This document shows positions 28,537 to 61,030 of a stretch of DNA of 64,000 bases, piece after piece. The DNA lies in assembly GCA_003152105.1 (NCBI GenBank), contig PLZJ01000002.1:848112-912111 (forward strand). The letters run 5' to 3'. Under the pieces are notes generated by a model, which ran no database searches, was not told where the DNA came from, and saw only the letters and a list, made by a program, of their open reading frames with translations. The first letter of the stretch is position 1; each line of letters begins with the position of its first letter. Source of the stretch: Candidatus Levyibacteriota bacterium. GTDB lineage: Bacteria; Patescibacteriota; Microgenomatia; Levybacterales; UBA12049. The translations under genes and the position numbers were made by a program.

Positions 28537-28571
28537 AGTTTAGAAGCTAAATCAACTATAGGACTAATTGC

Positions 28572-28643: not shown

Positions 28644-28704
28644 TTGTCATCGTATTATAACAAATCTAGCCTTATTATAGGTAGTGTATAAATTTGAGTT
28701 TAAG

Positions 28705-34420: not shown

Positions 34421-35041
34421 TTAAGGATCTCCCTCAATAAAAGTTCTCGGATTTACGGGTATATTAAATACGTCAATTTCAAAATGTAAATGTGGTCCTG
34501 TTGCCCAACCTGTTTCCCCCTCTTTTCCTATAATTGTCTGCCCTGCAACCACTTTATCTCCTTTTTGAACGTTTCTTTCACTTAAATGCCCATAAAGTGA
34601 GACTATATTATTCCCATTATCAATAACAATATGATTTCCATACCCCCAGTTAATCTCATCTGAATAAATAACAGTCCCACTTATAGCAGCAACAATTGGA
34701 GTGCCTTCAACATTTGCGATATCTATGCCTGTATGAAGAGGTTGGTATGGTAGGTCATTTGCACCAAATTCAAGCGTTACAACTCCATGTAATGGCCAGG
34801 TAGAGGTAATAGGAACAGTTGCTATAACTTTGCCAGTTATGGGATCATGGATATCAACATTATGTGTGTGAGTATCTTGACTTACTAATTGATCAGAAAC
34901 AATCTGTATACCTGCATTAGTTAAAATAAAAATAGAAAAAATAGGAATGGTAAAAAGAAGGATAAAAGTTAAACTGACAATTTGGAATTCACGCTTAAGA
35001 GAGTGAATTGCCATTATGCTTTTTAAAAGATTAGGATTCAC
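34421..35041 (-). CDS. M23-family peptidase (LytM-like), membrane anchored; probable T4SS cell-wall hydrolase
   Basis: HTGIDIA (HxxxD) and HLHFEI (HxH) motifs. N-terminal TM. Overlaps the VirB4-like gene. Confidence 0.8.
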   Translation of the reverse strand: MNPNLLKSIMAIHSLKREFQIVSLTFILLFTIPIFSIFILTNAGIQIVSDQLVSQDTHTHNVDIHDPITGKVIATVPITSTWPLHGVVTLEFGANDLPYQPLHTGIDIANVEGTPIVAAISGTVIYSDEINWGYGNHIVIDNGNNIVSLYGHLSERNVQKGDKVVAGQTIIGKEGETGWATGPHLHFEIDVFNIPVNPRTFIEGDP

Positions 35042-36851
35042 GTATTACTTGCCTCTCAGAAGGATCTGTAGTAATGAGAGGATGCTCTTTTTCAGCTGCA
35101 ACTACTTTTATTGCAACGTGATTTTGATCAGCAATAATTAGCGCTTCACCCTTGTCGCAAGTTAATAAGAACTTTTGTTCATACTCAGATAAATTAAATT
35201 CTTTGGCTACATTTGTAATAGTGGTGGTGTCTTGACGCATTAGTATTCGAAGAGAACTTTGCGAAGCAATTGCTTTACCGTATTCATTATTTAAAAAGTC
35301 ATTTGCCTGCTGTGAAATAATAGAAACCCCTAAATAGTACTTTCTTGCTCGTCTTACAAGTCCTGCAACAAATCTAGCGCTTTCCTGGTGCTCAAGTAGC
35401 ATCCATCCCTCATCAATTACAAGTAAACGCTTGGCAATGTTACTTTTTACCTGGTTATAGACAAAGTTGGAAAGTACAACCATCATTATTTGCCTCAATG
35501 ACTCTGGTAAATCTTTAATATCAAAAATGATTAATCTGTTATTTAATTTAATATTTGTTTTACTATCAAATACACTCGAGAGTGACCCTTTGACATATTT
35601 TTCAAGTCTTGAGCAAAGATCTTTTTCCTTGAGCTCTTTAAGCGTTTTGTAAAGGTCTTTAAGAAGTGGATACTCTTTACCCTTTTTAGCTCCATTTAAT
35701 GAAAAACCCAACTTTTTGTACGTTTGTATAATCGCTCGGTCAAGTACTGCCTTTTCATTAGGGGATAATCCCTCTGCCATAAGAGAAATGATTTCAGTTA
35801 AATCTTGAATATGCATTGACAAAGTTTCATCTTGCGTTAAAGAAAGATCAAAGGGATTGATCTTTTCATTAGATTTTGCAGAAAGTTTTATATATGTTCC
35901 GTTTACTGATTTTGTTAATTGTGCATATTCGCGCTCCGGATCAATAACAATTACTTTAGTTCCTTGCATGAGCTGTCTTAAAATCTCAACTTTGGCTGTA
36001 TATGACTTTCCAGACCCGGATTGAGCAAAAATTATCGAATTAGCGTTGTGTAAAGAAAACCGATCAAGTATGACAAGCGAGTTATTTGATCTGTTTATTC
36101 CATAGAGTATTCCTTTGTCTTGTACAAGTTCTGAGGAAACAAATGGAAAAGTTAAAGCTGCAGTAGAACTATCTAAATTTCTTTTTTGGTTTAGCGCGTT
36201 ATCAGCCCTTGGAAGTACTGAAGTTAAACCGAGTAACTGTTGAAATGTTGCAGTTTTGGTGTAAAAAAGGCGTGTTGCCATAACAGTATTAAGTAGTTTT
36301 GTCTTTTTGTTGAGTTCATTTAATGAATCGGCAAAAAGTGCGATGTAAATCGACACCTGAAAGAGTTTTTCTTGACCTCGAAGTATTTTATTTTTAAGAT
36401 CAACAGCAGATTGAAGTGGATCTAAAATTTCTGTTCCTACAATACTTCCATTCTTTGTTCGTGCGCGCTTAATTGATTCAAACTCAGTAATCTTCCTGGT
36501 AAGTTTTGGAATTGCACTTGATGCTTCAATTTGTTCTATATGGTAAGAAATATCAGCATTATGATTAAAATTAATCAGCATGTTTAACCAACCAGAAGTT
36601 GCGTTGTAGGGGTAACCCGAAATAAATAATACTCTAATGTATTTATCATCAATGTAGAGGTAACTTTTCTCATTTAGGAGTCCTGAGTAGGAAATGTGAT
36701 CGATTATATCTTGTGTTCCAAATTCAAACTTTAAAGCCTCTATCTTGGCTTTCTTATTCTTTCTTCTTTTCTTTAACTTTTTGGTAACTTTGTTAAAGTT
36801 ATTAAAGCTTGAATAGATGTTTGTATAAATGTTAGATATTAGTTGATCCAT
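35031..36851 (-). CDS. VirB4-like conjugative transfer ATPase
   Basis: Walker A AQSGSGKSY, VIDPEREY and Walker B LLVIDEGWML. Sits in an operon with T4SS membrane components. Confidence 0.75.
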   Translation of the reverse strand: MDQLISNIYTNIYSSFNNFNKVTKKLKKRRKNKKAKIEALKFEFGTQDIIDHISYSGLLNEKSYLYIDDKYIRVLFISGYPYNATSGWLNMLINFNHNADISYHIEQIEASSAIPKLTRKITEFESIKRARTKNGSIVGTEILDPLQSAVDLKNKILRGQEKLFQVSIYIALFADSLNELNKKTKLLNTVMATRLFYTKTATFQQLLGLTSVLPRADNALNQKRNLDSSTAALTFPFVSSELVQDKGILYGINRSNNSLVILDRFSLHNANSIIFAQSGSGKSYTAKVEILRQLMQGTKVIVIDPEREYAQLTKSVNGTYIKLSAKSNEKINPFDLSLTQDETLSMHIQDLTEIISLMAEGLSPNEKAVLDRAIIQTYKKLGFSLNGAKKGKEYPLLKDLYKTLKELKEKDLCSRLEKYVKGSLSSVFDSKTNIKLNNRLIIFDIKDLPESLRQIMMVVLSNFVYNQVKSNIAKRLLVIDEGWMLLEHQESARFVAGLVRRARKYYLGVSIISQQANDFLNNEYGKAIASQSSLRILMRQDTTTITNVAKEFNLSEYEQKFLLTCDKGEALIIADQNHVAIKVVAAEKEHPLITTDPSERQVIRES

Positions 36852-37446
36852 AGTTTGTTATTTTACCTATTGCCTCAGCGGACAATGGTTGTATTTTGTT
36901 TTGTACTTCAGAATAGAAGGAATAAAACATTTGCAATATTTCTAAGTTTTCCAAAGGCCTGGCACGCATTCCCATTTTCTCAATGCCCTTAATAACAATG
37001 TCTTGCGTAACTTGTAGCTGCTCTTTTATTAAAGAAAAATCACTATTATCAGTAGGGCTGTAGGGAATAATAATATAAAACCTTCTGGACAGTATTTTGT
37101 TTCCAGAAACTAGTGACTTAATAAACTCCCTGTAATTTTGGATTTGTTTTTTAAACACCTGTTCTTTTTCGTTTTGTTCAGAAAGCTTTAACTCATCTAA
37201 ATACATATCAATATCTAGTTCTCTAATTCGAACTAGAATCTGTAGTCGTGAAGGAAGGGAGTTTAAGAAGTTTTGAAAGTTTTCAAGCAACGCATCTTGT
37301 TCCTCATCGCTTTTAAGTTCAAAATTAACAGATGATGTTTCAAGTAACACGCAGTATGTGTTTTTAGGAAGAACTAAGATATTGTCCCTAACTTCCTTAA
37401 TTTGTATTTGCGATCTTGATGATAATAAATTAGGCAATAGTGGCAC
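36832..37446 (-). CDS. Hypothetical protein; possibly the N-terminal domain of a split VirB4
   Basis: 204 aa. Overlaps the start of the VirB4-like gene by 20 nt. The combined length (~810 aa) matches full-length VirB4. Confidence 0.35.
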   Translation of the reverse strand: MPLLPNLLSSRSQIQIKEVRDNILVLPKNTYCVLLETSSVNFELKSDEEQDALLENFQNFLNSLPSRLQILVRIRELDIDMYLDELKLSEQNEKEQVFKKQIQNYREFIKSLVSGNKILSRRFYIIIPYSPTDNSDFSLIKEQLQVTQDIVIKGIEKMGMRARPLENLEILQMFYSFYSEVQNKIQPLSAEAIGKITNYGSTNI

Positions 37447-37921
37447 GAATTACTCCTTTCTTATCCGGTATAAGACGAACTTCTTTTCCTTCTATAAATA
37501 ACCGCTCAAAAGCTAATTGGTCAGTTGGAGAATATATTACTTCCTCGACTTCTTTTTCCTTCTTTGCTTTTTTGGTCTTTTTCTTAATTTCATTTTTAAG
37601 GAAACTTAAATCACGCATTGAAGTATCATTTTTGTTAAATAAGTACATTCTTGGAGACAAATAATAAATAGCAATAACAAGTAACCAGTTAAAAATGACT
37701 CTTCCTTTAAGACGAAGTGAGAGAATAAATAGTATTCCTGGAACTAGAATGATAAGTGGTATTTTGTATGGTTCAAGCTCCATGCTTTTAGGAAGAACTG
37801 TATAAATCCCTGCACCTGAAAACAAAGCTATGGTTAATAGAGATATTTGCAGCATTGATAAGTTACCGGCAATTTTATCTTCAACTGTTGTAATTTGAGC
37901 AGGTACTACTGTTGTTTTCAT
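37430..37921 (-). CDS. Small 2-TM membrane protein (VirB3/PrgI-like candidate)
   Basis: Two adjacent TM helices followed by a Lys-rich cytosolic tail. Operon position between the VirB6-like and VirB4-like genes. Confidence 0.35.
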   Translation of the reverse strand: MKTTVVPAQITTVEDKIAGNLSMLQISLLTIALFSGAGIYTVLPKSMELEPYKIPLIILVPGILFILSLRLKGRVIFNWLLVIAIYYLSPRMYLFNKNDTSMRDLSFLKNEIKKKTKKAKKEKEVEEVIYSPTDQLAFERLFIEGKEVRLIPDKKGVIRATIA

Positions 37922-39216
37922 ATAGCAACCCTCCTGGCAGGTTTTTTAACTGGCTCAGATGTTCCATAACTATCTTCCGTGTTTTCTTCTTTCTTAGCAG
38001 ATATTACATTAATAAGTTGTGAGCCTACTGCTTTGAACGCACCATTAACTGATGTGTAAAAAGCCATTTGTCCAAGCACTCCTGGAATTTTAAGAAGCGA
38101 AAAGAAAATTCCAACAGCAATAAGAATTGATATTAATGAATTGGTTCCACTTTGCGAAGAAACTGTTAAAAATGAAGACGCCAGTTGAATAGTAACTACA
38201 TGGATAAATACAGTAAAAATGGTTACCATATATGATTTAGCAGCAATCTTTGCAAAATCAGAAGTTCCAGGAAGCGCCCACATGAGAAAAATAAGAGGAG
38301 ATAAAACTGCACCCAGTGAAATGGTTATTAATCTTCCTATGTAATACAAGAGAAGAATAATTGTTAATATAATAAACAGTAGCATAAAAATAAGTGTAAT
38401 TAAGGGAGTGTTATTGGAAACAATAGTTGTTGGATCAAAAGCAGAAAGTACCCAAGCTCCTGTTATTCCACCAGTTGCATTTAAAACTGCCTTAATCATT
38501 GTGTTGCAAAGTGTAATTATCCGATCAATTAAAAATATGGATATGTTTGCTCCAAGAAACGCTAGGACGATCCTACTCATTACTTGTTTTAAATCTATAT
38601 CTTCATATCCAAAAGCTGAGGCACTCATAACATGAAATCCTAAAAGCGCAATAATTACGGCAAATAGCGAGTCGGTAATACCAAGAATAACCAACCAAAA
38701 GTTAAATACAACAGAATTTGTTGCAAGTTGAGGAGTTGTGGTTAAAAAAGTTATAACTCCATCAACAAGTGGTTTTGTTGCTGATTGGATAACATTTTGC
38801 AGTACGCCAACAAACGCGTCAATTAAGACCTGTGCAAGCCCTCCAGAGGGAGTTGCGGGCTGAATTGGAGTAAGTGATAGTCCACCTGTGTTAGAAGGTG
38901 AAATAGGTGTTTCAAACGCATGAGAAAGAATTGCAGTTATTGTTCCAGCACCGATAATAAAGACAAGACCAATTAAAGCGTTTCTAATTGTCTTTTTTGC
39001 TTTGACCAGGTTTTCTGGATTTCCAGACGAGGTTATATATGAATAACCACCCTTAACAAGAAACAGTCCTGATACAAAAGTACCAAGAAGCGTTAATGTA
39101 CCAAGTAAATCTGTTGTATATGGTTGTACGTCTGCGTTAGTTATGGCCATTGCATGAGATGGTACAAGAAGTAATCCTGCCCACAACACGGATAAGATAA
39201 GTAAAAACTTTTTCAT
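37918..39216 (-). CDS. VirB6-like polytopic T4SS membrane protein with an N-terminal pilin-like domain
   Basis: Signal peptide plus many TM helices. N-terminal ~100 aa (KGGYSYITSSGNPENLVKAKKTIRNALIGLVFIIGA) is paralogous to the upstream 110-aa pilin-like protein. Confidence 0.5.
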   Translation of the reverse strand: MKKFLLILSVLWAGLLLVPSHAMAITNADVQPYTTDLLGTLTLLGTFVSGLFLVKGGYSYITSSGNPENLVKAKKTIRNALIGLVFIIGAGTITAILSHAFETPISPSNTGGLSLTPIQPATPSGGLAQVLIDAFVGVLQNVIQSATKPLVDGVITFLTTTPQLATNSVVFNFWLVILGITDSLFAVIIALLGFHVMSASAFGYEDIDLKQVMSRIVLAFLGANISIFLIDRIITLCNTMIKAVLNATGGITGAWVLSAFDPTTIVSNNTPLITLIFMLLFIILTIILLLYYIGRLITISLGAVLSPLIFLMWALPGTSDFAKIAAKSYMVTIFTVFIHVVTIQLASSFLTVSSQSGTNSLISILIAVGIFFSLLKIPGVLGQMAFYTSVNGAFKAVGSQLINVISAKKEENTEDSYGTSEPVKKPARRVAI

Positions 39217-45412: not shown

Positions 45413-45413
45413 A

Positions 45414-45674
45414 TTAATTACTTATCCCATCTGAAACTTCTTCTAAATTCCAAGAAAGATTAAATGTGTCAAAGCGAAGTCTAAAATAAAACTTGTTTGA
45501 ACTTACGTGAAAGAGATGATGCACTGTTCCGCCTACTTTTTCTCTATGTACGTAAGCTAGTTTTTCAATCTTGTAATCTTTTCCATTCCAGCGAATACGA
45601 GCCGGGAATAATTTATCTCCCATCTTTTTAAACACACCAATGACTTCAACTTTTTCATTGATTTTCTCAAGCAT
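45414..45674 (-). CDS. yolD: YolD-like protein (UmuD-analogous accessory of Gram-positive Y-family polymerases)
   Basis: 86 aa immediately upstream of the Y-family polymerase gene, with YolD-like size and pattern. Confidence 0.5.
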   Translation of the reverse strand: MLEKINEKVEVIGVFKKMGDKLFPARIRWNGKDYKIEKLAYVHREKVGGTVHHLFHVSSNKFYFRLRFDTFNLSWNLEEVSDGISN

Positions 45675-45684
45675 AGAATATCTC

Positions 45685-46260
45685 CTATCGGTATCTTCTG
45701 AGTGATGAAACTACCACACCGCCAATAGTTAGCGAATATTTTGGTTCAATTGGCTGATATTTTGGATTAGCAGGAATAAGCCTTACTTTTCCGTTTTTCA
45801 ATTCATAGTATTTAAGTGTCCATTCATTATCAACAAGTGCTGCAACAATATCATTTGTACGAGGTTGTAAATCAAGATCAACTACAACTCGGTCTCCGTC
45901 ATAAAGTCCAGCACCAATCATAGAATCTCCAGACACTGTTAAGATAAAAGAAGAATTTGGGCTATGCACTAAATATGTATCTAAAGAAAGTTCTTCAACT
46001 ACTTCATTTGCAGCATCTTGTGGAAATCCTGCCTTAATCATTCCGTATGAGCGAAGAGTTAACGATAAATTTTTAGGAAGTAATCTTCCGTTTTTATCTT
46101 TTTCAATAATTCCTTCTTTAATTAACTGGTGTGCAAGATAAAACGCAGAACCTTTTGTTTTGTAATGAAACATTTTTCGAAGTTCCTCATAGGAGGGCAT
46201 TCTGTTATGAGTTTTATAAAAGTATCTTAACCTTTCAATTGCTAGTTCTTTTTCTACCAT
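45685..46260 (-). CDS. lexA: LexA-like S24 peptidase repressor
   Basis: N-terminal wHTH. Ala-Gly cleavage site (MIKAGFP). Ser-Lys dyad motifs GDSMIGAG ... NEWTLKYYE. Confidence 0.85.
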   Translation of the reverse strand: MVEKELAIERLRYFYKTHNRMPSYEELRKMFHYKTKGSAFYLAHQLIKEGIIEKDKNGRLLPKNLSLTLRSYGMIKAGFPQDAANEVVEELSLDTYLVHSPNSSFILTVSGDSMIGAGLYDGDRVVVDLDLQPRTNDIVAALVDNEWTLKYYELKNGKVRLIPANPKYQPIEPKYSLTIGGVVVSSLRRYR

Positions 46261-46273
46261 ACTAATTTTTAGT

Positions 46274-46294
46274 TATAATTGAACGATCGTTCAA
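46274..46294. promoter_or_regulatory. Cheo-type SOS box TTGAACGATCGTTCAA with adjacent TATAAT, in the divergent lexA-like/plus-operon promoter region
   Basis: Perfect palindrome GAAC-gatc-GTTC at 46281-46292, 21 nt upstream of the lexA-like start. TATAAT at 46274-46279. Confidence 0.75.
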
Positions 46295-46368
46295 AAGTCA
46301 AGGGATTATACGAATATAAAGCGAACGTAAAATCATGGTTTATAAACTTTAGTGGTATAATTGCAATT

Positions 46369-47121
46369 ATGAAAACTGAAGTTCAGGCTGAAATGGCAGC
46401 AATATTACACGCATATAACTCAAACTATGATGGGGGGGAAGATGATGTTTTGGTTGCAACTCCTGACGATAACACGAAAATTGTTGCTGAGTATATCAGA
46501 ATGAGATTATTGCCGGCAGTGCATAAAGCATCTGAATTTGAAGCCACATTTGATAGCACAGTTATTTGGCCGGAACAAGAATTAGCTGACTATGACAGGG
46601 ATTTAGAAGCTATTAGAGCAATGACAAAAAAACAAAGGGTTAGTTTGGATGATCAATTGCTTGAAATAAGTGGTCGCAAAAGGGATAGAGGTGGAATAAT
46701 GGTGCTAAGATCATCGCATGGCGATCAGGTTGCAGGATTTGCAATTGATTCACATACTTTAAAATCTGCAGAAACACAGGGTTTTGGCCTTCATGCATTG
46801 GCCGCAATGAACCTGAGCGCTGAATTAGATGACCTTGAAGATTATGACAGAGAAACTGTCGGAGTTATATTACGGGGGAATATCTTTTTTGATGTTGAAG
46901 GATTTAAGACCCCCATTGTCCAGTTATTTCTTCCGTGGCCGGTTCAAGATCATTCAGAATTTGATCCTCAGTTTCAACGAGTTGGTTCTCATTTAATTTC
47001 TCAGAGAAGAATGATTCCAGTTGATTATGATTGTAATCTGGTAGACGGGACCTTTTCATTTAATGGAGCTGATAGATATGAAGTTAAACCACTCAAGACA
47101 ATTAAGCAGCTAATTAAATAA
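46369..47121 (+). CDS. Hypothetical protein, SOS-box-proximal
   Basis: Preferred ATG at 46369 (MKTEVQAEMAA...) because the track's TTG start at 46279 lies inside the SOS box. No motifs recognised. Confidence 0.4.
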   Translation: MKTEVQAEMAAILHAYNSNYDGGEDDVLVATPDDNTKIVAEYIRMRLLPAVHKASEFEATFDSTVIWPEQELADYDRDLEAIRAMTKKQRVSLDDQLLEISGRKRDRGGIMVLRSSHGDQVAGFAIDSHTLKSAETQGFGLHALAAMNLSAELDDLEDYDRETVGVILRGNIFFDVEGFKTPIVQLFLPWPVQDHSEFDPQFQRVGSHLISQRRMIPVDYDCNLVDGTFSFNGADRYEVKPLKTIKQLIK

Positions 47122-47153
47122 CACGCGCTGTTTGATATAATAACCCTAACAAT

Positions 47154-47831
47154 ATGTGCGGACGATACGGATTTACCAGTGAAATTGCAGATGTAAAAAC
47201 CAGATTCGATATTGAAAGATGGTTAGATAAAATTTATGATAAGGAAGAACTCTATAATATCGGTCCGGGTACTAGAAATCCAGTAGTAGTCAGACGATCT
47301 CCAAATTCAGGTCTTCTTATGAAATGGGGTTGGACATGGGATGTGCCGTGGATGGAAAAGCCACTATTTATTATTAACGCCAGAAAAGACAAGCTTACTA
47401 CCTCGAAAGCATATAAAAAGCCATTTTTATTTCAGCGTTGTATTATTCCTGCAAATTTCTTTTATGAATGGAAAGCAATAGGTAAAGAGAAATATCCGTA
47501 TCTTTTTAAGTGTAAAGATCAAAAATTATTTGGTTTTGCAGGACTTTACTTTACGGAAAAAGACGCAGAAGGTAAAGAAGCAGAATATTATGTAATCATT
47601 ACAACCGATGCAAATGAAATTATGCAACCAATACATCACCGAATGCCGGTTATTTTGGATAAGGAGGATGAAGACACATGGTTAAACCCTGACAATGTAG
47701 AACAGGAACAGCTTTTGCCCCTACTTAAACAATACTCATCGGACAAAATGGAATGTTACCCTGTTTCGCAAGCAGTTAATTCTACTAGAAATGATAATGG
47801 AGACTTAATAAAACCTATTGATAGTAAATAA
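47154..47831 (+). CDS. SOS response-associated peptidase (SRAP/YedK/HMCES family)
   Basis: Hallmark N-terminal MCGRY (Cys2 nucleophile), SRAP-like length and pattern. Confidence 0.85.
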   Translation: MCGRYGFTSEIADVKTRFDIERWLDKIYDKEELYNIGPGTRNPVVVRRSPNSGLLMKWGWTWDVPWMEKPLFIINARKDKLTTSKAYKKPFLFQRCIIPANFFYEWKAIGKEKYPYLFKCKDQKLFGFAGLYFTEKDAEGKEAEYYVIITTDANEIMQPIHHRMPVILDKEDEDTWLNPDNVEQEQLLPLLKQYSSDKMECYPVSQAVNSTRNDNGDLIKPIDSK

Positions 47832-48286: not shown

Positions 48287-51200
48287 TTAAACAGGTGCAT
48301 CTTCCCAAAGCTTTCTTAATTCTTCATTAATTTGTAATTTTTTTACGGCTTTATCCAATATCTGCCTTACTCTTTCTCTCGTAAGACCTCCATAAATTTC
48401 ACCTATAGCTTCTAAAGTCATTGGTTCATCGCTTCCGATACCATGTCTCATTTTGAGCATTTCTAACTCTCTTTCCGTCAATAACCCTCCTACAATACCC
48501 TCTATTTGCTCAATATTATCATCGTCTGTTGCACCAGGCTGGTAATCTTCGTAGTTATCTGCAACAAATTCTCCAAGAGTTGTTTCTGTATCTGATCCAA
48601 TTGGCCTATCCAGAGATGCCACTCTAGTAACTTTTCCTTCAAACAAATCCATAACAATATCAATTCTTTCTAGCTGTGCTTCTTCCAATAAGCTTCTTAA
48701 CTCTTTTTTAGTTGGAGATCTATTTTCCCGTACTTCGAACTCAGTCACGATTTTCATAGCTTTTCCATATACTTCTCGCGCATGGATAGGAATTCTAATC
48801 ATACTTCCGTCATTTTTAACTGCCCTATCAATACTTTGAGCTATCCAAGGAGTAGCATACGTTGAAAACTTATTTCCTGTATGATAATCGAATCCTTCAA
48901 CTGCTCTTTTTAAACCAAAATAACCCTCTTGAACTCTATCTTCTATGGTTAAAGCATGATACTTTTTAGCGATATGAATCACTAATCTAAGATTACATAA
49001 AGCAACAAGTTCTTCAATAGATTCACCATCTCTAGAGACATTTGCAAATAATCCTTCAGATTTTGGTCTGATTGTTTTTAAAAAGTCAGTATCTTGGAAA
49101 AGACTATCAATAGTTTTTCCTTCTTCCAAAAGTTTGAATATAATATTCTCCTGTTGTCTACTCAGTAGTGGATATTGTGCGGCTTGCGTCATGTATCTTC
49201 GGAAAGAGTCAACTTCCTCAAAACTCATTCCATTAAAATCTTCAGTTGAAAAAACCACTACGTCTTCACCATCGGACTCATAAGAATTTCTTTCTCTTTC
49301 TGCCGTACCATTTCCTCTAAATCTTGAAGAAAATTGCTGTCTAACACTATTTGGTTCTGGTGGCTTATTTGATTTTACTTGCGACAATTCATCCCTTAAT
49401 ATTTGCATACCATGTTCGTTAGCTGTAAATATCTGTCTTCGTCCAACATTACTCTTTGTAATATACTGTGGATGACTTACGGCTAGCTCATTTAAGCGTT
49501 TATATATTGCAGATCCGGTTCTTAAACCAAATTCCCGTGCTAAATCAAATATTGGTACTTGAGTGAATCCATCTTCAACACTACTACCGTATTCCACCTG
49601 TAAAGTGGTTAAGAGTTGAGGCGCTATGAACCATTGCCATCCTTTTTCACTTCTTCTAACTGAATCTGGGTCAGCAGCCTGTAGCTCTTTTAACCTTTTA
49701 TATATCCTGCTTCTCTTTCCTTCGCCAACTTGCTGAACTAATTCATTTATTGGAAGAGGTATTAACCCTTCAGGAGCAGCTAATCCTCTAATTCTATCCA
49801 GCAAAAGTTCATATCCTTCTGCTGATATATAATTAGATCTATTTATGCTTTTAAAATGTTGTGGATTTTCTTCATGCAAAGCTCTTAAGTGATACAATAC
49901 TCTGCTTGATTCCATTCCGAATTCAAACGCTATGTCATTGGGAGTAAATCTTTGAAATCCTTCTGGAATATTAATTGCTTGCTCTCTTTCTTCAGCGTAT
50001 CTGTTTATTACTTCCATTACTTCTTCAAGATTTGTTATAACTTTCAGTCCTTCTATATGAATTAAAGGGGAAGATCCTCTAAAAGAACCCGAATATGTTC
50101 GTCCTGTAAATTCTTTGGCTTTTTTCGGAGCAAATGCAGTGCCTGCAACTTCAGCAAAAGTTAAAGCTCGGCCCTTTGCATGCTTATTTTCATCAACGAC
50201 ATCAATAATGATTGCTTCCTTATCAGGATTATTAGGATCAAGCCTCAACACTCTTCCTCCTCTTTGAATTGCGTTTACTTTTGACAAAGTCGGTGCAAGA
50301 TTAATCAGCAAGTTAGCATTAGGTGCGTCAATACCTTCTGCTAAAAGTTTTTTGCTTAGTAAAACTTTAATCTTTCCACTTTTAAAATCATCTAAGTATT
50401 GTTTTCTTGTTCTTTTATCAAGCCTCCCATGAAACGCTCTAGCTTCTATTCCTTCTGCACGAAACATCTCTTCAAGTTCAATAGCATGCTTAACTGATAA
50501 AGTAGTTATAAAAGCGGAGGAATCTGGGAAATGATTTTTATATATGTCGACTGCTGCTTGATTTCGCTTTGCAATATTTAATGCCCTCTCAAGTTGTTTT
50601 GGGTCATACTCACCAGTTGAAGAGATAATTGGAACCTGTGACATATCTATATCGGTTTGAGCAATAAACACCTTAAATGGAGAAATTAATCCTTCTTCAG
50701 CAGCTTCTTTAATTGTTACATAATGCATTTTCTTCTCAAGAAGTAAACCTACATGCTTATCGGTTGAATACTCTGGTGTAGCGCTAAGACCCAACTTAAT
50801 AGCTCCCTTAAATTGCCTTATTGCATCCATTCGAGCTGGTGTTAAAGCCTTATGAGCCTCATCACATATTACAAATCCGTAATCTGATGGATTAATGGTG
50901 CCTTCTTTTACGCCTTTTAATAGGTAATCATATGTTGTTATCGTAACATCTCGATCTAACTGCTTAACATGAGTGTAGGCCAATCCGGTTGGTATATTAG
51001 GAACAAACTGTGTAAATGTATCCTGCATTTGCTGTACTAAATCTTGAGTTGGAGTTATTATCAATGTTTTGGCTCTTAAAGCTTTTACCATTTCTGCAGC
51101 TAATACAGACTTTCCAGTTCCTGTAGGAAATTCAATATAGCCTTCTGTTGAACCCTCAGCTAAATTCGATCTAATATCTTCAAATACCGTAAACTGATGC

Positions 51201-51550
51201 TCTCTTAAAACCCTATCAACATCTCCAATTTTATGTGCTGCAATATAATCATCAAGATTTGCTAGAGCTAATTTTTGCTGTATCTCAGAAGCCATTTCGT
51301 CAGTTAAACTTCCATCCTTACGAGTAAGCCTAACTAATTGGGGGTATAGAGATACTCTGACAGGATATCGAGTTTCCAATTCATCCTGGGGAAATGCAAC
51401 CAAACTATCTATTCCGTCTATTGAATCATGGACGGCGGGTAACAAATTTTGGCCTACATTTTGTTTCACGAATGTATTTACTTCTCGCAATTGTCCAGCA
51501 AGCTCGGTAGTGCTTTTTGTCCTTGATGTTTTAATTTCAGTTTTTACCAT
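48287..51550 (-). CDS. Fusion protein: SF2 DEAH helicase + tandem wHTH-like repeats + complete sigma-70 (regions 2-4) domain
   Basis: Walker A PTGTGKS, DEAH VICDEAHK, LSATP and motif VI QRGGRVLR. C-terminal sigma region 2/3 KFSTYATPWIAQSIDRAV and MIRIPIHAREV, region 4.2 TLEAIGEIYGGLTRERVRQILDKAVKKL. Confidence 0.8.
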   Translation of the reverse strand: MVKTEIKTSRTKSTTELAGQLREVNTFVKQNVGQNLLPAVHDSIDGIDSLVAFPQDELETRYPVRVSLYPQLVRLTRKDGSLTDEMASEIQQKLALANLDDYIAAHKIGDVDRVLREHQFTVFEDIRSNLAEGSTEGYIEFPTGTGKSVLAAEMVKALRAKTLIITPTQDLVQQMQDTFTQFVPNIPTGLAYTHVKQLDRDVTITTYDYLLKGVKEGTINPSDYGFVICDEAHKALTPARMDAIRQFKGAIKLGLSATPEYSTDKHVGLLLEKKMHYVTIKEAAEEGLISPFKVFIAQTDIDMSQVPIISSTGEYDPKQLERALNIAKRNQAAVDIYKNHFPDSSAFITTLSVKHAIELEEMFRAEGIEARAFHGRLDKRTRKQYLDDFKSGKIKVLLSKKLLAEGIDAPNANLLINLAPTLSKVNAIQRGGRVLRLDPNNPDKEAIIIDVVDENKHAKGRALTFAEVAGTAFAPKKAKEFTGRTYSGSFRGSSPLIHIEGLKVITNLEEVMEVINRYAEEREQAINIPEGFQRFTPNDIAFEFGMESSRVLYHLRALHEENPQHFKSINRSNYISAEGYELLLDRIRGLAAPEGLIPLPINELVQQVGEGKRSRIYKRLKELQAADPDSVRRSEKGWQWFIAPQLLTTLQVEYGSSVEDGFTQVPIFDLAREFGLRTGSAIYKRLNELAVSHPQYITKSNVGRRQIFTANEHGMQILRDELSQVKSNKPPEPNSVRQQFSSRFRGNGTAERERNSYESDGEDVVVFSTEDFNGMSFEEVDSFRRYMTQAAQYPLLSRQQENIIFKLLEEGKTIDSLFQDTDFLKTIRPKSEGLFANVSRDGESIEELVALCNLRLVIHIAKKYHALTIEDRVQEGYFGLKRAVEGFDYHTGNKFSTYATPWIAQSIDRAVKNDGSMIRIPIHAREVYGKAMKIVTEFEVRENRSPTKKELRSLLEEAQLERIDIVMDLFEGKVTRVASLDRPIGSDTETTLGEFVADNYEDYQPGATDDDNIEQIEGIVGGLLTERELEMLKMRHGIGSDEPMTLEAIGEIYGGLTRERVRQILDKAVKKLQINEELRKLWEDAPV

Positions 51551-51780
51551 ATTTATATTCTATATTTATACAAAAAATAATCTTTCGGTGAAAGAGTATT
51601 TTACCATTTATAGCCTGACATTACAACCTATAGGATAATTTGTGTTCACTTTTAAATACTTTCGACTTATCTAAATAATTATAAGTGCATAATGTAAAGC
51701 TATTATCAATGAATCTATTGCTAACCCAACTTCTTACTATAAGTTGTTTTTGCCTTCATTTTCTGCTATAATTAACGCTT

Positions 51781-54700
51781 ATGACAAGCAACATTGAGTC
51801 TCTTAACATTCCTGAAGCTAAAGCAGCAGCTACTCTTGCAGAAAGTGCAATTATAGAAGAGCAAAAACCAGTACTAACCGAGGTAAGAACAAATGAACTT
51901 CTCGCAAGAGCAACGGGTTTATTACATATGTATGATGATTTTATAAAATCCCTGCCTCTAAAAGGAAGAGATTATTTCGCATTACCCAATCTCCCTCAGA
52001 GCATCGAAGACGCACATAGAGAATTTTCGGAGGAAGATACCATTGATACTACAAATATGTTAATAAACACTCCTTTTATTAATGAAGCACTACAAACACA
52101 TCATCCCAAAGCAGTTGGCATGTTTTTACGAGGAGTTATGACTGTAAACAAGGAGGCTGCAGATAAAGGACTTAGCCAAACTCCTATTGAGATTGAAGAT
52201 GAGTCATTCGAAGATCAATTAACCAATGTTCTTATACTTCAAATTGCAAATTATCCCTCTTTATACCCAGCAATTAGACCGCACGCATTTAGTTTGGTTA
52301 AAGATTCAGAACAAATTGAAGAATCTGAAAAGGAAGAAAAAAGGAGACTTTATGACCTTGTGAGCAAAGTTGAAGGAAGAGCTGGAATGAAGCTATTCGG
52401 AATGGGATATTATACGGGTACTACTCGTGAGCTTTTTAATCACATGAACCAACGCGCATTCTTACATGAATTTGGTGAGGAACAAATTGTTGCTTTACAG
52501 GCAGCATTTTCTGATCCTGAATATCTTGATCCATATGGTGTGGGAGAAAAAAATAGTCATGCCTTAGCTGGTATTGGACTTATTGCGGCATCAAAAAAAG
52601 CAGGCGCTCCCATTGATGCTTCAGTGGTTTCCCAAATGGAAGAAAGACACGGGGAATGGTTTAACTCTAGATTAAAGTATATCTTTGCCACTGATCCAAA
52701 AACTTCAAACATTGACCCCTATATTGAAGAATTGCTTGCCAGACCGCTTAACAAGAATCAATCAGAAAGCATTTTATACCTTGCTTTAACAAATGGAACT
52801 TCAATTCATCCCGACTCATATGCCGCAGAAACAATAAAAGAGTCAGGCTTACCGCTTGAGCAAGTTTTTACACTTACCAAAGTAGCTCTTGATGCAACAA
52901 ACGGCAACATAGAAAGATTAAATCCCGTCATACATGAATTACTTCAAGGATCAAGTGAAGGTGAACTTTCAAAAAAAGCTATATCTTCGCTTGTCTACGC
53001 CTGTATTGGATTTGATGTTGATATACCTAATTTCTTGCAACCCTCTATTAAACAGCATTATTCTCAAGTTGCAGAAGGAATATTAACCGATAAACCTAGG
53101 CGTACATACACAAAAAATGATGATACACTTGACTATCCAGTGCATCCTATATACCGTCTATTTTCGGAAGGATTACAAGCGCTACCAAAAAGTATTGCTG
53201 ATGTGTTTAGTCAGGATGAGATAAATCGAGATGAGATCGCAACACAAATTATGACCCATCTTTTTAAAGATGGATTCTATACCCATTATTTTGATCCAAT
53301 TCTCTCTCAAGAATATCCGACTGCAACCTTGAGTATTAATGAATTAGATGGGAAACTTTGGCAACTTGTTCATCCTGATATTTGGAATCTTCTAAGAGAA
53401 GCAGATACGGTAACTTTGCTTAATGTTATTAAAGATGTTTTACCTGGTGGGATGGTACAACTTATTAAATATCCAAAAGGAACAGAGATATATGGAACAA
53501 GTAATGTTTCGATAGACGCTTGTTTGCCTCCTGATCTTTTTGAAGCAATAGCAAAGCTTCATATAGAAACTGCAACTGAAAATGATAATATTTCTTGGGC
53601 AGATAATGTAGTTTTTGAAAAAGGTCTACCAAATGGTAAATCTAAGGAAACTCCAAAACCATATACACAACTGATGGATTTCTCTCAAAGAATATGGAGA
53701 CATATACAATCTGACCTTATTAGTAAAAACATCTCCAAAAGTATATTTAACAGGCTATGGAAGCTACCAAATGAATCTGGTATTGGACTTGAGATATTTG
53801 ATCCGGAACTAAAAGATTGGATAGTAATACCAGGAAAAAGTCATATAGATCAAGAAGGTTATCCCGATGATATCAAACTTGTCATTGCAAATCCTGTAAG
53901 CTACCTAGAAAAATATTTAGCTTTTTTGGGAAATATACGCTATAAATATAGCGGGTGGTATCAATCAATTGATGCCTTTAATATATGGAGAAATGCAACT
54001 CCATGGGATTTTTTGCACCCTGAACAATATTTAGATCATCAGACGTTTCAAAGTAATGATAAAACCTTTCATCACCTTGAGCATTGGACAGAAATACTTC
54101 AAGCACGGGAACTTGGTGAAACACTAAAGGTTAGATATAGTGAAGAAGGTGGTTTTACTGAAAGCCAGCATGATCTTCTTTTTACGCTTTCCGCTTTGGA
54201 AGATCCAACGGACACTGATCAACTACCGTCTGTTAGATACGGACTGATTGATCAAAACACTGCGGTAGTTTATGCAATTCAAATGCCATTAATTGATAGA
54301 ATGGCTCCAAGCAATGTAAAAGTAGCGCTTGAGCGTCAAAACAATTTCTTAAAATATTACACAAATTTCGCAAAAGCTGCAGTAGATCACGATGAGTTTT
54401 TTACTAGCATTGCTGGGGACATATCCGAGGTTATCTTGCATCCTCCAGAAGATTTAGACTTCAATGAGTATGTAAGGCATATCTCTGCAAAAATTCTTAA
54501 AAACAATGGCGTCAAATCATACACAGAACTACAGCGAAAATATCAACCCTATTTGAAACAACCAAATAAATCAGAAGACATAGGGAAATCATACGTCGCA
54601 AATATAATACTTAATTTAGTCTATGGAATTGAGATGTTTGATAAAGCCTCAAGTATTTCACCGCTTTTTGAAGAACGTTCAGAAAGAATGAAACGGGTTA

Positions 54701-55074
54701 ACGTTTTATTCGCAAACGAAAGAAAAAATGGTAACTCGCAAAGTAGGAATATTCCTTCAGGTCCAGCGCTAAGTCTTGCTTTATTTTGTATTCTCGCTAA
54801 AACACATGGCGTCACAAGAATTCAAGTTCCAACCTACTTCCCACGACGACTTCACGATGATCCAGAAACAGATCAAAGAATACTTCAGCAAATGACAAAA
54901 ACAATTGAAAGTGTTACTAATTTAATTGATGGTGTATCAATTTCTTCTTTCCCCGATGATTCGGATGGCTCATTTTACCTTGGAATTGAAGGAGAATTAT
55001 CAAGTACAAATGAGACTCTTTCAAACGCGATTAAAAATATTTCTGCAGTTTCTCATGATAGAGGAAGCAACTAG
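51781..55074 (+). CDS. Large (1097 aa) hypothetical protein divergent from the helicase-sigma gene
   Basis: Uninterrupted ORF with no recognisable motifs. Confidence 0.5.
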   Translation: MTSNIESLNIPEAKAAATLAESAIIEEQKPVLTEVRTNELLARATGLLHMYDDFIKSLPLKGRDYFALPNLPQSIEDAHREFSEEDTIDTTNMLINTPFINEALQTHHPKAVGMFLRGVMTVNKEAADKGLSQTPIEIEDESFEDQLTNVLILQIANYPSLYPAIRPHAFSLVKDSEQIEESEKEEKRRLYDLVSKVEGRAGMKLFGMGYYTGTTRELFNHMNQRAFLHEFGEEQIVALQAAFSDPEYLDPYGVGEKNSHALAGIGLIAASKKAGAPIDASVVSQMEERHGEWFNSRLKYIFATDPKTSNIDPYIEELLARPLNKNQSESILYLALTNGTSIHPDSYAAETIKESGLPLEQVFTLTKVALDATNGNIERLNPVIHELLQGSSEGELSKKAISSLVYACIGFDVDIPNFLQPSIKQHYSQVAEGILTDKPRRTYTKNDDTLDYPVHPIYRLFSEGLQALPKSIADVFSQDEINRDEIATQIMTHLFKDGFYTHYFDPILSQEYPTATLSINELDGKLWQLVHPDIWNLLREADTVTLLNVIKDVLPGGMVQLIKYPKGTEIYGTSNVSIDACLPPDLFEAIAKLHIETATENDNISWADNVVFEKGLPNGKSKETPKPYTQLMDFSQRIWRHIQSDLISKNISKSIFNRLWKLPNESGIGLEIFDPELKDWIVIPGKSHIDQEGYPDDIKLVIANPVSYLEKYLAFLGNIRYKYSGWYQSIDAFNIWRNATPWDFLHPEQYLDHQTFQSNDKTFHHLEHWTEILQARELGETLKVRYSEEGGFTESQHDLLFTLSALEDPTDTDQLPSVRYGLIDQNTAVVYAIQMPLIDRMAPSNVKVALERQNNFLKYYTNFAKAAVDHDEFFTSIAGDISEVILHPPEDLDFNEYVRHISAKILKNNGVKSYTELQRKYQPYLKQPNKSEDIGKSYVANIILNLVYGIEMFDKASSISPLFEERSERMKRVNVLFANERKNGNSQSRNIPSGPALSLALFCILAKTHGVTRIQVPTYFPRRLHDDPETDQRILQQMTKTIESVTNLIDGVSISSFPDDSDGSFYLGIEGELSSTNETLSNAIKNISAVSHDRGSN

Positions 55075-55240: not shown

Positions 55241-56023
55241 TTATTCAACCTTATTCCAAATATTTACATTATTTTCCCCACCATTTAACACCTTAAATTT
55301 AGTTGACAAAAAAATCGAGGGATTATCTTCCATTCGCTTATTAAGTAAATCTTTTGCATAATGATAGATATGTCTTTTCTTGTTTTCCGTGGAACAAATA
55401 AAAAGAACTGAAGGTAACTCTTCTTCTGTGTTCTCCTCCCATTCCCTAGAGTCGGCGTAGCTTAAATATTTTCGTATTCTAAACCTCAAAACTCCAGCTG
55501 GAATAAATTCGTCATAATATTCAAGTAAATATCTTCTAGTTTCTTTTGGAGTTTTTATTGAAATATATGCAGCAGGTAGCGGATCTGGAAAATAATCAAA
55601 AAGTGAAAGATCATTTTGGGAATAAAACAAAAGTTTTTCATTTTTCTTTAGAATTGATAAAAAGTATATATAAATATCGACAATGGATGAGCAGTAATTT
55701 ATGAATCGCTTAGTTACTGTATCTCCTTTGTAGGCAGTATTTAGTGCTTTTTCGTTCTTCTCACCTTTTTGACGTAAGTACGCCCTGCCAGCTTTGGTTA
55801 AATAAATGATGCGATGTTCAGTTTTCTCAATAAATGTTGTTTGTTTGATAGTATTTATTAATCCTTGTTTTTTAAGTTTTGTTATTCTCTCGTTTATTGT
55901 ATCTGAGTATTTGTTTTTGTTTATTTTTTGTAATTGATTAGTTTTTATGTATCTAAATTTTAGTACTAATTTTAATAGTTCATTTTCTTTATTTGTTATC
56001 TTTACTGTCTTTATATCTTCCAT
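55241..56023 (-). CDS. Replication-relaxation (Replic_Relax) family-like protein
   Basis: N-terminal wHTH pattern ITNKENELLKLVLKFRYIKTNQLQKI is typical of the Replic_Relax family found on Gram-positive conjugative elements. Confidence 0.45.
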   Translation of the reverse strand: MEDIKTVKITNKENELLKLVLKFRYIKTNQLQKINKNKYSDTINERITKLKKQGLINTIKQTTFIEKTEHRIIYLTKAGRAYLRQKGEKNEKALNTAYKGDTVTKRFINYCSSIVDIYIYFLSILKKNEKLLFYSQNDLSLFDYFPDPLPAAYISIKTPKETRRYLLEYYDEFIPAGVLRFRIRKYLSYADSREWEENTEEELPSVLFICSTENKKRHIYHYAKDLLNKRMEDNPSIFLSTKFKVLNGGENNVNIWNKVE

Positions 56024-59318: not shown

Positions 59319-60959
59319 ATGGATTTGAAAAATCGTCAGTATGCTGATGGAAAAAGAGCTGTTATTTACTTAAGAGTTTCAACTGAGGAACAGGTTGATA
59401 ATTTTTCACTAGATACACAAGAAGATATATGTCGGAAGGAAGCTGAGAAAAAAGGTTATGAAGTAATTGATATTTTTAGAGAAGAAGGAAGATCTGCAAA
59501 AAATATTGTTGGCAGACCTGTACTTATAAGTCTCCTCGAGTATTGCCGAAAAAATAAACAGAGGATACAGGCAGTCTTCGTCTATCGCATAGACCGAATA
59601 TCTAGACAAACTGCTGATTATTTAGCGATTAGAAAGAAACTACTTGAAAATGACGTAACAATTATATCCGCCACAGAACCAACTGGAGATTCTCCCACTG
59701 AAAAACTTGTAGAAACAATTCTCGCTGGATTTGCGCAATTAGATAATGATATTCGGTCTGAAAGGGCTAGAAATGGTCTTAGGGCAAGATTTAATTCTGG
59801 TTTACTAGGTGGAGGTACTGCGCCGCTTGGATATATATTCCAATCTGGATTCGTGGTAAAAGATCCAAAAACATGGGACAGAGTTAAAGAAGCATGGGAT
59901 TTAATGGCAACTGGTACAAAAAGTACCAGAGATATGGCTCTCATAATGAATAAATGGGGCTTACGAGAAACACGAAGACATAAAGAATATGAACTGCGAG
60001 CACAAACTACTTGTGGAATTTTTAGATTAAAATTTTATGCTGGTTTTCTTACATCCAAGAGATATCAACAAGAGGTAAAAGGGCAACATGTCCCTATGAT
60101 TACTGAAGAACAATTTTATAAAGTCCAGGCAATAATAGATGGCAGAAAAACTACTAAAATACCTTTAGCTCGAAGGACTTTTGAGAATACGGACTTTCCT
60201 CTTAGAAGAATTGTAAAATGCGCGAAATGCGGAATGGGATTAACCGGCTCATGGAGCACAGGAAGACATGGCAAAAAATATGCACATTACTTTTGTTCAA
60301 GTAAGTGTAATTATAAATGTATTCCAGTAAAACTTATGGAAGACGAACTTATTAAAGCTCTAAAAAGAGTTCAGCCTAAAAAAGAAACACTCAAACTATT
60401 TATAGATTCTATATTTCGAATTTATAATCAACGGCTATCAAGATTAACAAAAATAAAAAATGATGCAGATTCTGAAATAGAACGACTTAAGGCACTCAGA
60501 AAGGCAGTTGTTGAAAAAAATCTAGAAGGTGTTTATTCCAATGAGGTATTTAAAGAGCAAAACAGTATTATCGAAGAGAAGATAACAATGGCATATATAG
60601 TAAAAGATGATGCTAACTTAGAAAAGTACAATGTAAATGCATTAACTGATTTTATTAAAACCATTCTGGCAGATCTGGGAGAAACATATAGAAGATCAAG
60701 TATTGGACAGCTAAAAGTACTCCTGGGTTCCGTGTACCCTGGTGGAATCGCTTGGGACTATTCTGGTACATTGGACCCCTCGATTAGCCCGATATATCAA
60801 CATATTCGAACGTTTTCGAATGAGGTCATCCAGTCTGGAGCGGTGAATGGGACTCGGACCCACGACCTTCTCGTTGAAGGCGGTATGTTCCGCACAAAGA
60901 GACTTCTTTTCAAAGCTATAATATCATCGTGTTACCATTTAGTAAATATGACAAAGTAG
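59319..60959 (+). CDS. Large serine recombinase (integrase)
   Basis: Resolvase catalytic N-terminus AVIYLRVSTEEQ ... VYRIDRISR. Recombinase domain and zinc ribbon CAKCGMGLTGSW...HYFC. Coiled-coil region. Confidence 0.9.
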   Translation: MDLKNRQYADGKRAVIYLRVSTEEQVDNFSLDTQEDICRKEAEKKGYEVIDIFREEGRSAKNIVGRPVLISLLEYCRKNKQRIQAVFVYRIDRISRQTADYLAIRKKLLENDVTIISATEPTGDSPTEKLVETILAGFAQLDNDIRSERARNGLRARFNSGLLGGGTAPLGYIFQSGFVVKDPKTWDRVKEAWDLMATGTKSTRDMALIMNKWGLRETRRHKEYELRAQTTCGIFRLKFYAGFLTSKRYQQEVKGQHVPMITEEQFYKVQAIIDGRKTTKIPLARRTFENTDFPLRRIVKCAKCGMGLTGSWSTGRHGKKYAHYFCSSKCNYKCIPVKLMEDELIKALKRVQPKKETLKLFIDSIFRIYNQRLSRLTKIKNDADSEIERLKALRKAVVEKNLEGVYSNEVFKEQNSIIEEKITMAYIVKDDANLEKYNVNALTDFIKTILADLGETYRRSSIGQLKVLLGSVYPGGIAWDYSGTLDPSISPIYQHIRTFSNEVIQSGAVNGTRTHDLLVEGGMFRTKRLLFKAIISSCYHLVNMTK

Positions 60960-61001: not shown

Positions 61002-61030
61002 TTGACAAGTGAACGATCGTTCTATATAAT
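61002..61030 (+). promoter_or_regulatory. Sigma-70 promoter TTGACA-17-TATAAT with an SOS box (GAACGATCGTTC) in the spacer
   Basis: TTGACA at 61002-61007, GAACGATCGTTC at 61011-61022, TATAAT at 61025-61030. The box core is identical to the one at 46281-46292. Confidence 0.75.

Follow-up and report, generated by a model that had tools for sequence, protein, structure and literature searches.

A helicase and a sigma-70 factor joined in a single gene on a mobile element of a Levyibacteriota bacterium

Contig PLZJ01000002.1 of Candidatus Levyibacteriota bacterium (assembly GCA_003152105.1) carries, on the minus strand of the 64,000 nucleotides analysed here (positions 848,112 to 912,111 of the contig, hereafter the window, in whose own numbering all coordinates are given), a gene that joins a superfamily 2 (SF2) helicase, three winged-helix-like repeats and a sigma-70 module in one polypeptide. 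Judged from the assembled sequence, the fusion is a genuine single gene, and its domain architecture is new, recurrent but rare. We tentatively read its product, giving this reading somewhat less than an even chance, as an element-borne alternative sigma factor that would dock on the host RNA polymerase and bring a tethered, ATP-driven DNA motor to promoters. The gene and its parts are as follows.

48287..51550, minus strand: helicase/winged-helix (three)/sigma-70 fusion gene, whole; 1087 amino acids, ATG start, TAA stop
51230..51550, minus strand: N-terminal region, residues 1-107; conserved in the helicase family, the alignments of relatives beginning near query residue 5-50
50156..51229, minus strand: SF2 helicase core, residues 108-465; Pfam ResIII, Helicase_C and DEAD, and phrog_16 at 237.9 bits
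49970..50155, minus strand: connector after the helicase, residues 466-527; family consensus '...ITFAEIA ... GLxVITDxxEVMR'
49385..49969, minus strand: three tandem winged-helix-like repeats, residues 528-722, from repeat alignment z-scores and the pattern in an AlphaFold2 (AF2) model
49217..49384, minus strand: acidic linker, predicted disordered, residues 723-778; isoelectric point (pI) 4.6, predicted local distance difference test score (pLDDT) below 50 in the AF2 model
48290..49216, minus strand: sigma-70 module, regions 1.2-4.2, residues 779-1087; Pfam regions 2 and 4, whole-sigma and structure alignments

The unbroken frame of 1087 amino acids is present exactly as a preliminary description of this DNA, made from the letters alone, had claimed, and all nine of the peptide motifs quoted there lie at the expected places in the protein: PTGTGKS at residues 142-148, VICDEAHK at 227-234, LSATP at 255-259 and QRGGRVLR at 429-436 in the helicase, two repeat strings at 613-631 and 679-697, and KFSTYATPWIAQSI (894-907), MIRIPIHA (917-924) and LTRERVRQILDKAVKKL (1056-1072) in the sigma part. 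A missed stop or frameshift between helicase and sigma, a concern raised in the same description, finds no support in the sequence. The reading frame runs continuously across the linker, both alternative forward frames at the junction are stop-rich, and the coding signal is uniform, with a GC content at the three codon positions of about 0.50/0.36/0.21 (GC1/GC2/GC3) in every 150-codon block of the gene; within the linker itself, coding periodicity is maintained and the other frames are closed by stops. Identical copies of the fusion protein occur on three assembled contigs of 0.2-1.15 Mb, apparently from one sample.

These observations bear on the suspicion of an artefact or an accident in decay, that is, that a stop codon was lost by an assembly or sequencing error, or that a recent deletion joined a helicase gene to a sigma gene. 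Such an origin would suit a protein that stands alone in its 90%-identity cluster, with nothing closer to it than family helicases of 30-46% identity, and that is known from three contigs of apparently one sample. We nevertheless consider it very improbable, given the continuous frame, the closed alternative frames and the uniform periodicity through the linker, the catalytic and core-binding motifs, all preserved in a protein so diverged that it is about 37% identical to any sigma and 30-46% identical to any helicase, and the analogous fusions from independent samples, of which one was recovered in identical form from two runs. Two further candidates were tried and rejected. A recoded genetic code behind the long open reading frame (ORF) does not hold, as TGA terminates 6 of the 56 ORFs of the window and the fusion gene itself ends in TAA; an internal start that would yield a free sigma factor is unsupported, there being no Shine-Dalgarno or -10-like sequence upstream of M775 or M787.

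The helicase part is that of an intact SF2 enzyme, as had been proposed. Scored against Pfam gathering cut-offs (and, below, against NCBIfam curated cut-offs), ResIII (residues 115-260, 87.6 bits), Helicase_C (342-437, 67.6 bits) and DEAD (138-260, 45.5 bits) all exceed their thresholds, and motifs I, II, III and VI are intact (Walker A GTGKS with K147, DEAH at 230-233, SAT at 256-258, QRGGRVLR at 429-436) and match near-invariant columns in the alignment of a helicase family of the Candidate Phyla Radiation (CPR) to which we return below. Pfam finds no domain in the N-terminal region (residues 1-107). Behind the core, an AF2 model of residues 466-780, built with 16 homologues, shows the connector as a beta-beta-helix unit followed by three repeats of about 65 residues (528-592, 593-658 and 659-726). 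The preliminary description had counted two of about 60 residues and likened them to winged helices; the count has to be raised. Pairwise local alignments of the three give z-scores of 4.4, 7.5 and 13 against shuffled sequences, and each is modelled as a short strand, two helices, a beta-hairpin and a further helix, with pLDDT of about 80-94. A Foldseek comparison of the repeat model with the PDB returned nothing at E <= 0.001; the weaker matches are almost all tandem winged-helix proteins (UFL1/DDRGK1, SarS, RPC62, ESCRT-II, MarR/ArsR, CodY, RepE), and the Pfam model HTH_5, of ArsR type, reaches 17.5 bits on repeat 1, under its cut-off of 22. The label winged-helix-like thus seems reasonable for what is a predicted fold. 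A homologue search with the linker (residues 723-778) found none.

The C-terminal part is a nearly complete sigma-70 module, with region 2 at about 845-915, region 3 at about 916-1005, including the sigma finger SLDRPIGSDTETTLGEFVADN, and region 4 at about 1015-1081. Pfam recognises Sigma70_r2 (852-912, 39.3 bits, cut-off 24) and Sigma70_r4 (1024-1073, 41.1 bits, cut-off 24.1), and these follow ResIII and Helicase_C in the order anticipated. Sigma70_r3, expected between them, is not reported anywhere in the fusion protein at E <= 0.01, so that of the three regions first named (2, 3 and 4.2), region 3 is visible solely in whole-sigma alignments. Those alignments run unbroken. The NCBIfam models RpoD_Cterm (174 bits), SigB (162) and RpoS (153) cover residues 780-1081, solved SigA/RpoD chains of the PDB align from residue 779 to 1073-1081 (best E 2.6e-40), and a profile of 120 primary sigma factors scores 280 bits, with positions 25-376 of its 385 covered. 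No close relative of the module was found among 5.8 billion proteins; its best 120 matches are primary sigma factors of diverse phyla, about evenly distant from it at 34-44% identity (154-167 bits). An alignment almost residue-for-residue to RpoD, as first described, therefore holds for the motifs and not for the module overall. Compared column by column, the module retains 53 of the 65 positions that are at least 95% invariant among the 120 primary sigmas. Region 1.1 (PF03979) is not reported by Pfam in the fusion protein. The module probably derives from a primary-like (group 1/2) sigma factor.

What has been kept and what has changed in this module follow a pattern, for which we use the E. 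coli sigma-70 residue numbers that we take, from established knowledge, to correspond to its positions. Regions 1.2 and 2.1-2.2 are nearly consensus and include the core-binding helix of region 2.2 (QEG..GL..AVE.FD), and the region 3.2 finger (SLDRPIG...LGEFVADN) is nearly identical to the consensus of the 120 primary sigmas. Also kept are F427, T429, Y430, W434 and Q437 of regions 2.3-2.4, the extended -10 contacts H455 and E458 of region 3.0, and R584, E585, R586, R588 and Q589 of region 4.2, which make the -35 contacts. To our knowledge the sigma finger has no role outside the polymerase; for this reason, and because the core-binding helix is conserved with it, we argue that the module would still dock on RNA polymerase and form a holoenzyme. 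Non-conservative changes at near-invariant sites are S389H, L404R, K418G, W433P, R436A, R448S and E591L, those at 433, 418 and 436 falling on sites that are 99-100% conserved in the 120 primary sigmas, and Y425N and T440D lie at less strictly conserved positions. Most of the changes map to the face that nucleates and stabilises the opening of the strands at the -10 element, where K418G, W433P, R436A and R448S cluster, and with this face altered the module would, we argue, not act as an ordinary primary sigma factor.

The retained core contacts and lost melting residues would also suit a sigma part that is a mere tether, holding on the polymerase a helicase that acts after initiation (in the recycling or removal of stalled polymerase, on R-loops, or in conflicts between transcription and transfer), in the manner of RapA, HelD, Mfd or UvrD. 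RNA polymerase-associated ATPases are well established (RapA is cited in PMC5512222), and the position of the helicase relative to sigma, which varies between the fusions described below, is what a simple tether would allow. We regard this explanation as unlikely, since the protein keeps its contacts to the -35 element (R584/E585/R588/Q589) and to the extended -10 (H455/E458) as well as Q437, of which a mere tether has no need, and sigma is normally released after promoter escape.

The same conservation pattern speaks to a second alternative, in which the sigma part is one more helix-turn-helix (HTH) array that targets the helicase to DNA sites and has no role at the polymerase. Relatives of the helicase do bear arrays of HTH_29, MarR_2, HTH_17, HTH_11 or INT_rpt, one of them has sigma region 4 alone, and the winged-helix-like 'EGW...' repeat occurs family-wide. 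The near-consensus regions 1.2, 2.1-2.2 and the 3.2 finger, on the other hand, contact polymerase and not duplex DNA, and free sigma-70-type proteins are established to be poor binders of promoter DNA when core enzyme is absent. We hold this alternative to be distinctly unlikely.

Further evidence comes from the relatives of the helicase. When 1.84 billion representative proteins were searched exhaustively with phmmer, the best 150 matches all belonged to a single helicase family (275-432 bits, 372-1906 amino acids), whose few named members are annotated as Patescibacteria or Saccharimonadales and whose members share 30-46% identity with the fusion helicase. Their tails are variable DNA-binding arrays (the 'EGW' repeat, HTH_29, MarR_2, HTH_17, HTH_11, INT_rpt). 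In two members, P0080 and P0006, arrays of INT_rpt ('integrase repeat unit'), four copies in P0080, replace the winged-helix-like repeats after the helicase, from which it appears that the family exchanges its DNA-binding tail freely. Most relatives lie amid ordinary chromosomal genes such as recJ, scpAB, an aminoacyl-tRNA synthetase, RNase III and copper-resistance genes, and around the nearest sigma-less relatives we found neither a conserved gene neighbour nor a neighbouring sigma gene that would represent a split form of the fusion.

When 170 family proteins were searched with the sigma part of the query and with the profile of 120 primary sigmas, both searches gave the same three proteins beyond the query and nothing more, and Pfam confirms the sigma domains of all three. 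P0038 (1051 amino acids, the same gene from two sequencing runs) has a helicase followed by sigma regions 2-4, at 204 bits to the primary-sigma profile; P0030 (1166 amino acids, 126 bits) begins with sigma regions 2-4, followed by the helicase and then HTH repeats; P0070 (639 amino acids) has a helicase followed by sigma region 4 only. On the contig of P0038 (L009), a separate ORF of 85 amino acids (7723-7980) with a weak Sigma70_r4 match lies 3.5 kb downstream of the fusion gene. Scans of genome and metagenome contigs for relatives of the fusion gave nothing beyond chance-level sigma or helicase fragments, and in phage and plasmid collections no record spans at least 80% of the fusion protein. 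Compared by p-distance, the helicase cores of the four sigma-bearing members share 39-46% mutual identity, against a family median of 45%, and to each of the four some sigma-less relatives are closer (59% for P0038, 64% for P0030). The sigma modules of the fusions are 28-31% identical among themselves and 30-37% identical to free-standing primary sigmas. Taken with the differing domain order, these helicase-core and sigma-module identities indicate that sigma joined this helicase family independently at least three times. Repeated independent fusion in turn suggests a functional link between helicase and sigma. W433 is substituted in all three members that bear regions 2-4 (by P, Q and S). Of the functions first suggested for the fusion, helicase-coupled promoter opening or a sigma that would be kept inactive by its helicase domain, this loss fits the former.

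In our reading of the protein as an alternative sigma factor with a tethered motor, RNA polymerase binding, promoter specificity, ATP-dependent opening and target genes are all inferred from sequence, along the following lines. Sigma regions 2, 3.2 and 4 would attach to the RNA polymerase core of the host in the usual manner of a sigma factor, and the module would read promoters of the -35/extended -10 type. The linker, about 55 acidic and presumably disordered residues, would tether sigma to the XPB/RadD-like SF2 motor and the three winged-helix-like units, which may engage nearby duplex DNA, ATP being used to open or remodel the promoter. The motor could in this way compensate for the lost melting residues of sigma (W433P, K418G, R436A, Y425N), and the targets would probably be the element's own genes. 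In known holoenzyme structures region 1.1 occupies the downstream DNA channel, and in eukaryotes XPB acts on downstream duplex DNA. As the helicase here replaces region 1.1 and is joined through a flexible linker of 55 residues, the motor may be placed near downstream duplex DNA, an argument specific to the query and not transferable to P0030, where the helicase follows region 4.

Several observations weigh against this reading. Sigma regions 2-4 occur in only 3 of the 170 sampled family members, a rarity that leaves the fusion perhaps short-lived. Each of the query, P0038, P0030 and P0070 stands alone in its 90%-identity cluster, too few sequences for purifying selection on the fusion to be gauged. 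Two of the fusions place the helicase ahead of sigma and one places it behind, an arrangement that speaks against a single geometry of the motor relative to the polymerase, conserved across the fusions. Two of the substitutions, L404R and S389H, fall within or close to the core-binding region. Unrelated DNA-binding add-ons (HTH_29, MarR_2, HTH_17, INT_rpt) are common in the helicase family, and sigma could be merely another of them. Lastly, the fusion scores 84.6 bits against the NCBIfam XPB model, far below its cut-off of 610, which means kinship at the level of the superfamily and not orthology.

Textbooks present sigma-70-type initiation as the example of a promoter opened with no need for ATP, and the only established ATP-requiring route of bacterial initiation that we know of is that of the unrelated sigma-54. 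A sigma-70 module that lacks a key melting residue and is joined to an intact SF2 motor would offer a direct test of whether bacteria, too, use helicase-assisted initiation, as eukaryotes do with XPB in TFIIH. A bolder version, to which we give a rather small chance, is that of a self-contained ATP-dependent initiation factor, in which sigma would have lost spontaneous -10 melting and an XPB-like motor would pump or unwind DNA at the polymerase. If true, the protein would be a bacterial, single-polypeptide counterpart of promoter opening by TFIIH/XPB and would add a second ATP-dependent route to open complexes beside sigma-54 and its AAA+ activators, and the mobile element would express its own genes in any host. 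More generally, the independent fusions are a 'Rosetta-stone' hint that a widespread, uncharacterised CPR helicase family acts together with the machinery of transcription. For a protein common in these largely uncultivated bacteria, this would be the first lead as to function. The finding also places sigma factors among the cargo types of conjugative elements.

The fusion gene is transcribed away from a second long gene, from which a short intergenic region separates it.

51551..51780, no strand assigned: divergent intergenic region, 230 bp; promoter-like elements, inverted repeat
51781..55074, plus strand: divergent orphan gene, 1097 amino acids; acidic (pI 5.0), soluble, predicted mostly helical, with coding periodicity

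The orphan is a real coding sequence, to go by its codon periodicity. It had been described as lacking recognisable motifs, and we found no match to it in any collection searched, namely Pfam, NCBIfam, PADLOC, PHROGs, the PDB, a plasmid collection and 5.8 billion proteins, nor does it have a transmembrane segment; a single-sequence AF2 model reaches a pLDDT of 37, too low for use. Whether fusion and orphan are conserved together had been named as a check; we found no evidence that they are, the orphan being absent beside the P0038, P0030 and P0070 genes. Between the two genes, TAGAAT begins 12 nt ahead of the ATG of the fusion gene and TGCTATAAT stands immediately ahead of that of the orphan, both promoters being of a putative leaderless type. 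A 13-nt inverted repeat with a 3-nt spacer (AAAATAATCTTTC GGT GAAAGAGTATTTT) at 51574-51602 lies over the putative -35 zone of the fusion gene and could serve as an operator; no LexA box (GAAC-N4-GTTC) is found in 51551-51780. Throughout the window, many genes that are first in their operon show an extended -10 (TGnTATAAT), its hexamer beginning 12-14 nt before the ATG, and no Shine-Dalgarno sequence (14322, 21836-22369, 22506-23483, 23613-24125, 24877-25659, 31842, 39801, 51781 and 61037 are examples), some with TTGACA about 17 nt further upstream, which points to leaderless mRNAs being widespread in this organism, on chromosome and element alike.

The mobile-element setting proposed for the fusion gene is supported by type IV secretion genes, a coupling protein and a serine recombinase in the region, which additionally encodes FtsK and TrbC. 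The features of this setting are listed here.

34421..39216, minus strand: type IV secretion block (M23 peptidase, VirB4/TraG-like ATPase, PrgI, TrbL/pilin), a marker of conjugative elements
55241-56023, minus strand: Replic_Relax-like protein, a weak match (22.2 bits against a cut-off of 25.3)
56151-58811, minus strand: type IV coupling protein, from Pfam
59319..60959, plus strand: large serine recombinase, from a domain match; likely the element's integrase
44162-45412: Y-family polymerase (IMS/IMS_C), in a DNA-damage cassette
45685-46260: S24 LexA/UmuD-like peptidase, in the same cassette
47154-47831: SRAP (SOS-response-associated peptidase), in the same cassette
39801-41570: DUF7380 + DUF4209 (EMARD_N) protein, 589 amino acids, between the type IV secretion block and the SOS cassette
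43388-44140: protein with an Mrr-type restriction endonuclease domain, 250 amino acids; ZorD/PDC-S02-like nuclease matches in PADLOC
28570-28643, minus strand: tRNA-Gln, the only Rfam match in the window
28705-29745: Fic + TrmB-HTH protein, beside the tRNA-Gln

The natural reading of the region is an integrative conjugative element of a CPR/Patescibacteria-type bacterium, of which the tRNA-Gln/Fic locus (28570-29745) may be one edge. Between its transfer genes lie the Mrr-type nuclease, the S24 peptidase with the Y-family polymerase, the SRAP protein, the fusion gene and the orphan gene; the DUF7380/DUF4209 and Mrr-type proteins may be defence cargo. The DNA-damage cassette (44162-47831), which directly adjoins the fusion gene, also holds an ORF of 86 amino acids and a protein of 280 amino acids without assigned function. 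Identical perfect palindromes, GAACGATCGTTC, occur at 46281-46292, in the divergent promoter between the operon of S24 peptidase and Y-family polymerase and the 46279-SRAP operon, and at 61011-61022, upstream of a DUF5677 gene at 61037. They match the Gram-positive LexA (Cheo) box GAAC-N4-GTTC, a pattern found three times in the window against 0.5 expected, an indication that the element carries a regulon of SOS type. The stretch 3593-10175, presumably chromosomal, encodes a metal-ion transport cluster with two Nramp transporters, a P-type cation ATPase and an MgtE-N/CBS protein.

Such surroundings invite the view that the fusion protein is a defence, anti-defence or establishment factor, either resembling the sigma-bearing protein MzaA or of the 'polyvalent' type that would start element transcription in the recipient, soon after transfer, perhaps together with the orphan. 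MzaA is indeed the top match of the C-terminus in both NCBIfam (180.6 bits) and PADLOC (118.7 bits), the gene adjoins those for the relaxase-like and coupling proteins and is near the Mrr nuclease, the Y-family polymerase and the LexA-like protein, and conjugative elements deliver helicase-bearing proteins of several domains, primases and RNA polymerases along with their DNA (PMC5512222). We consider this improbable all the same. The MzaA score is far under the cut-off of 800 and covers the sigma part only, a resemblance at the level of the domain, and PADLOC matched no other Mza component (MutL-like, Z1, AIPR) in the fusion protein and four neighbours, the five proteins scanned, the Pfam matches of the neighbours being to conjugation and SOS genes. 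The orphan partner is missing beside the other fusions, the helicase relatives sit mostly among ordinary chromosomal genes, and sigma goes unmentioned in the survey of polyvalent proteins (PMC5512222).

Among known systems, the closest kin of the C-terminal part are the primary sigma factors RpoD/SigA and the group 2 factors RpoS/SigB, with which it shares homology regions 1.2-4.2, the core-binding helix, the finger and the extended -10 and -35 contacts. The fusion differs from primary sigmas in lacking region 1.1, in whose place stand 778 residues of helicase, repeats and linker, in being encoded on a mobile element, and in carrying W433P, K418G, R436A, R448S, L404R and E591L at sites that are at least 95% invariant. 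It also falls below all the curated NCBIfam cut-offs (for RpoD, RpoD_Cterm 174 against 354 bits; PRK05658 172.4 against 555; cyanobacterial RpoD 170.2 against 384.5). With the CPR DEAD/DEAH helicase family the fusion has the N-terminal region, the core, the connector and the 'EGW/F' repeats in common, whereas 167 of the 170 sampled members lack sigma regions 2-4 (P0070 having region 4 alone), and most relatives have ordinary chromosomal surroundings while the fusion lies on a conjugative element.

MzaA has been described as a sigma factor within the anti-phage system mzaABCDE (PMC9523054). Both it and the fusion carry a sigma-70 module of regions 2-4 at the C-terminus of a much larger protein; the match is limited to that module (positions 474-708 of the 726 in the MzaA profile), and the N-terminal parts of the fusion are unrelated. 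Polyvalent proteins likewise are large and multi-domain, with an SF2 helicase module, and are encoded on conjugative elements near transfer genes, but their helicases are mostly of the SWI2/SNF2 type and paired with methylases, and the word sigma occurs 0 times in the survey that describes them (Iyer et al. 2017, PMC5512222). A literature search for helicase-sigma fusions found nothing relevant. The first impression that no characterised family unites the two thus holds for the literature searched, while that of a unique protein has given way to P0038, P0030 and P0070, which carry sigma parts as well.

Among solved structures, those closest to the profile of the helicase family are archaeal XPBII (99.9 bits), the SauUSI helicase, Rad25 (81.8 bits) and RadD, with TFIIH XPB (about 45 bits) a weaker match. 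The strongest match of the fusion to XPB/Rad25 is confined to the first motor domain, and by eye we saw no RED motif after motif III of the fusion helicase. In eukaryotes, XPB is the subunit of TFIIH by which promoters are opened at the expense of ATP, and in concept the two cases are alike, in that both pair an SF2 motor with promoter-recognition machinery. XPB, however, is a separate subunit of a multi-protein factor, whereas the motor of the fusion is covalently joined to the initiation factor. The other comparison is with sigma-54, the bacterial sigma factor that is unable to melt promoters alone and requires an ATPase. Its sequence is unrelated to that of sigma-70, and its ATPase is an AAA+ hexamer, a separate enhancer-bound protein, where the fusion has an SF2 motor within the same polypeptide.

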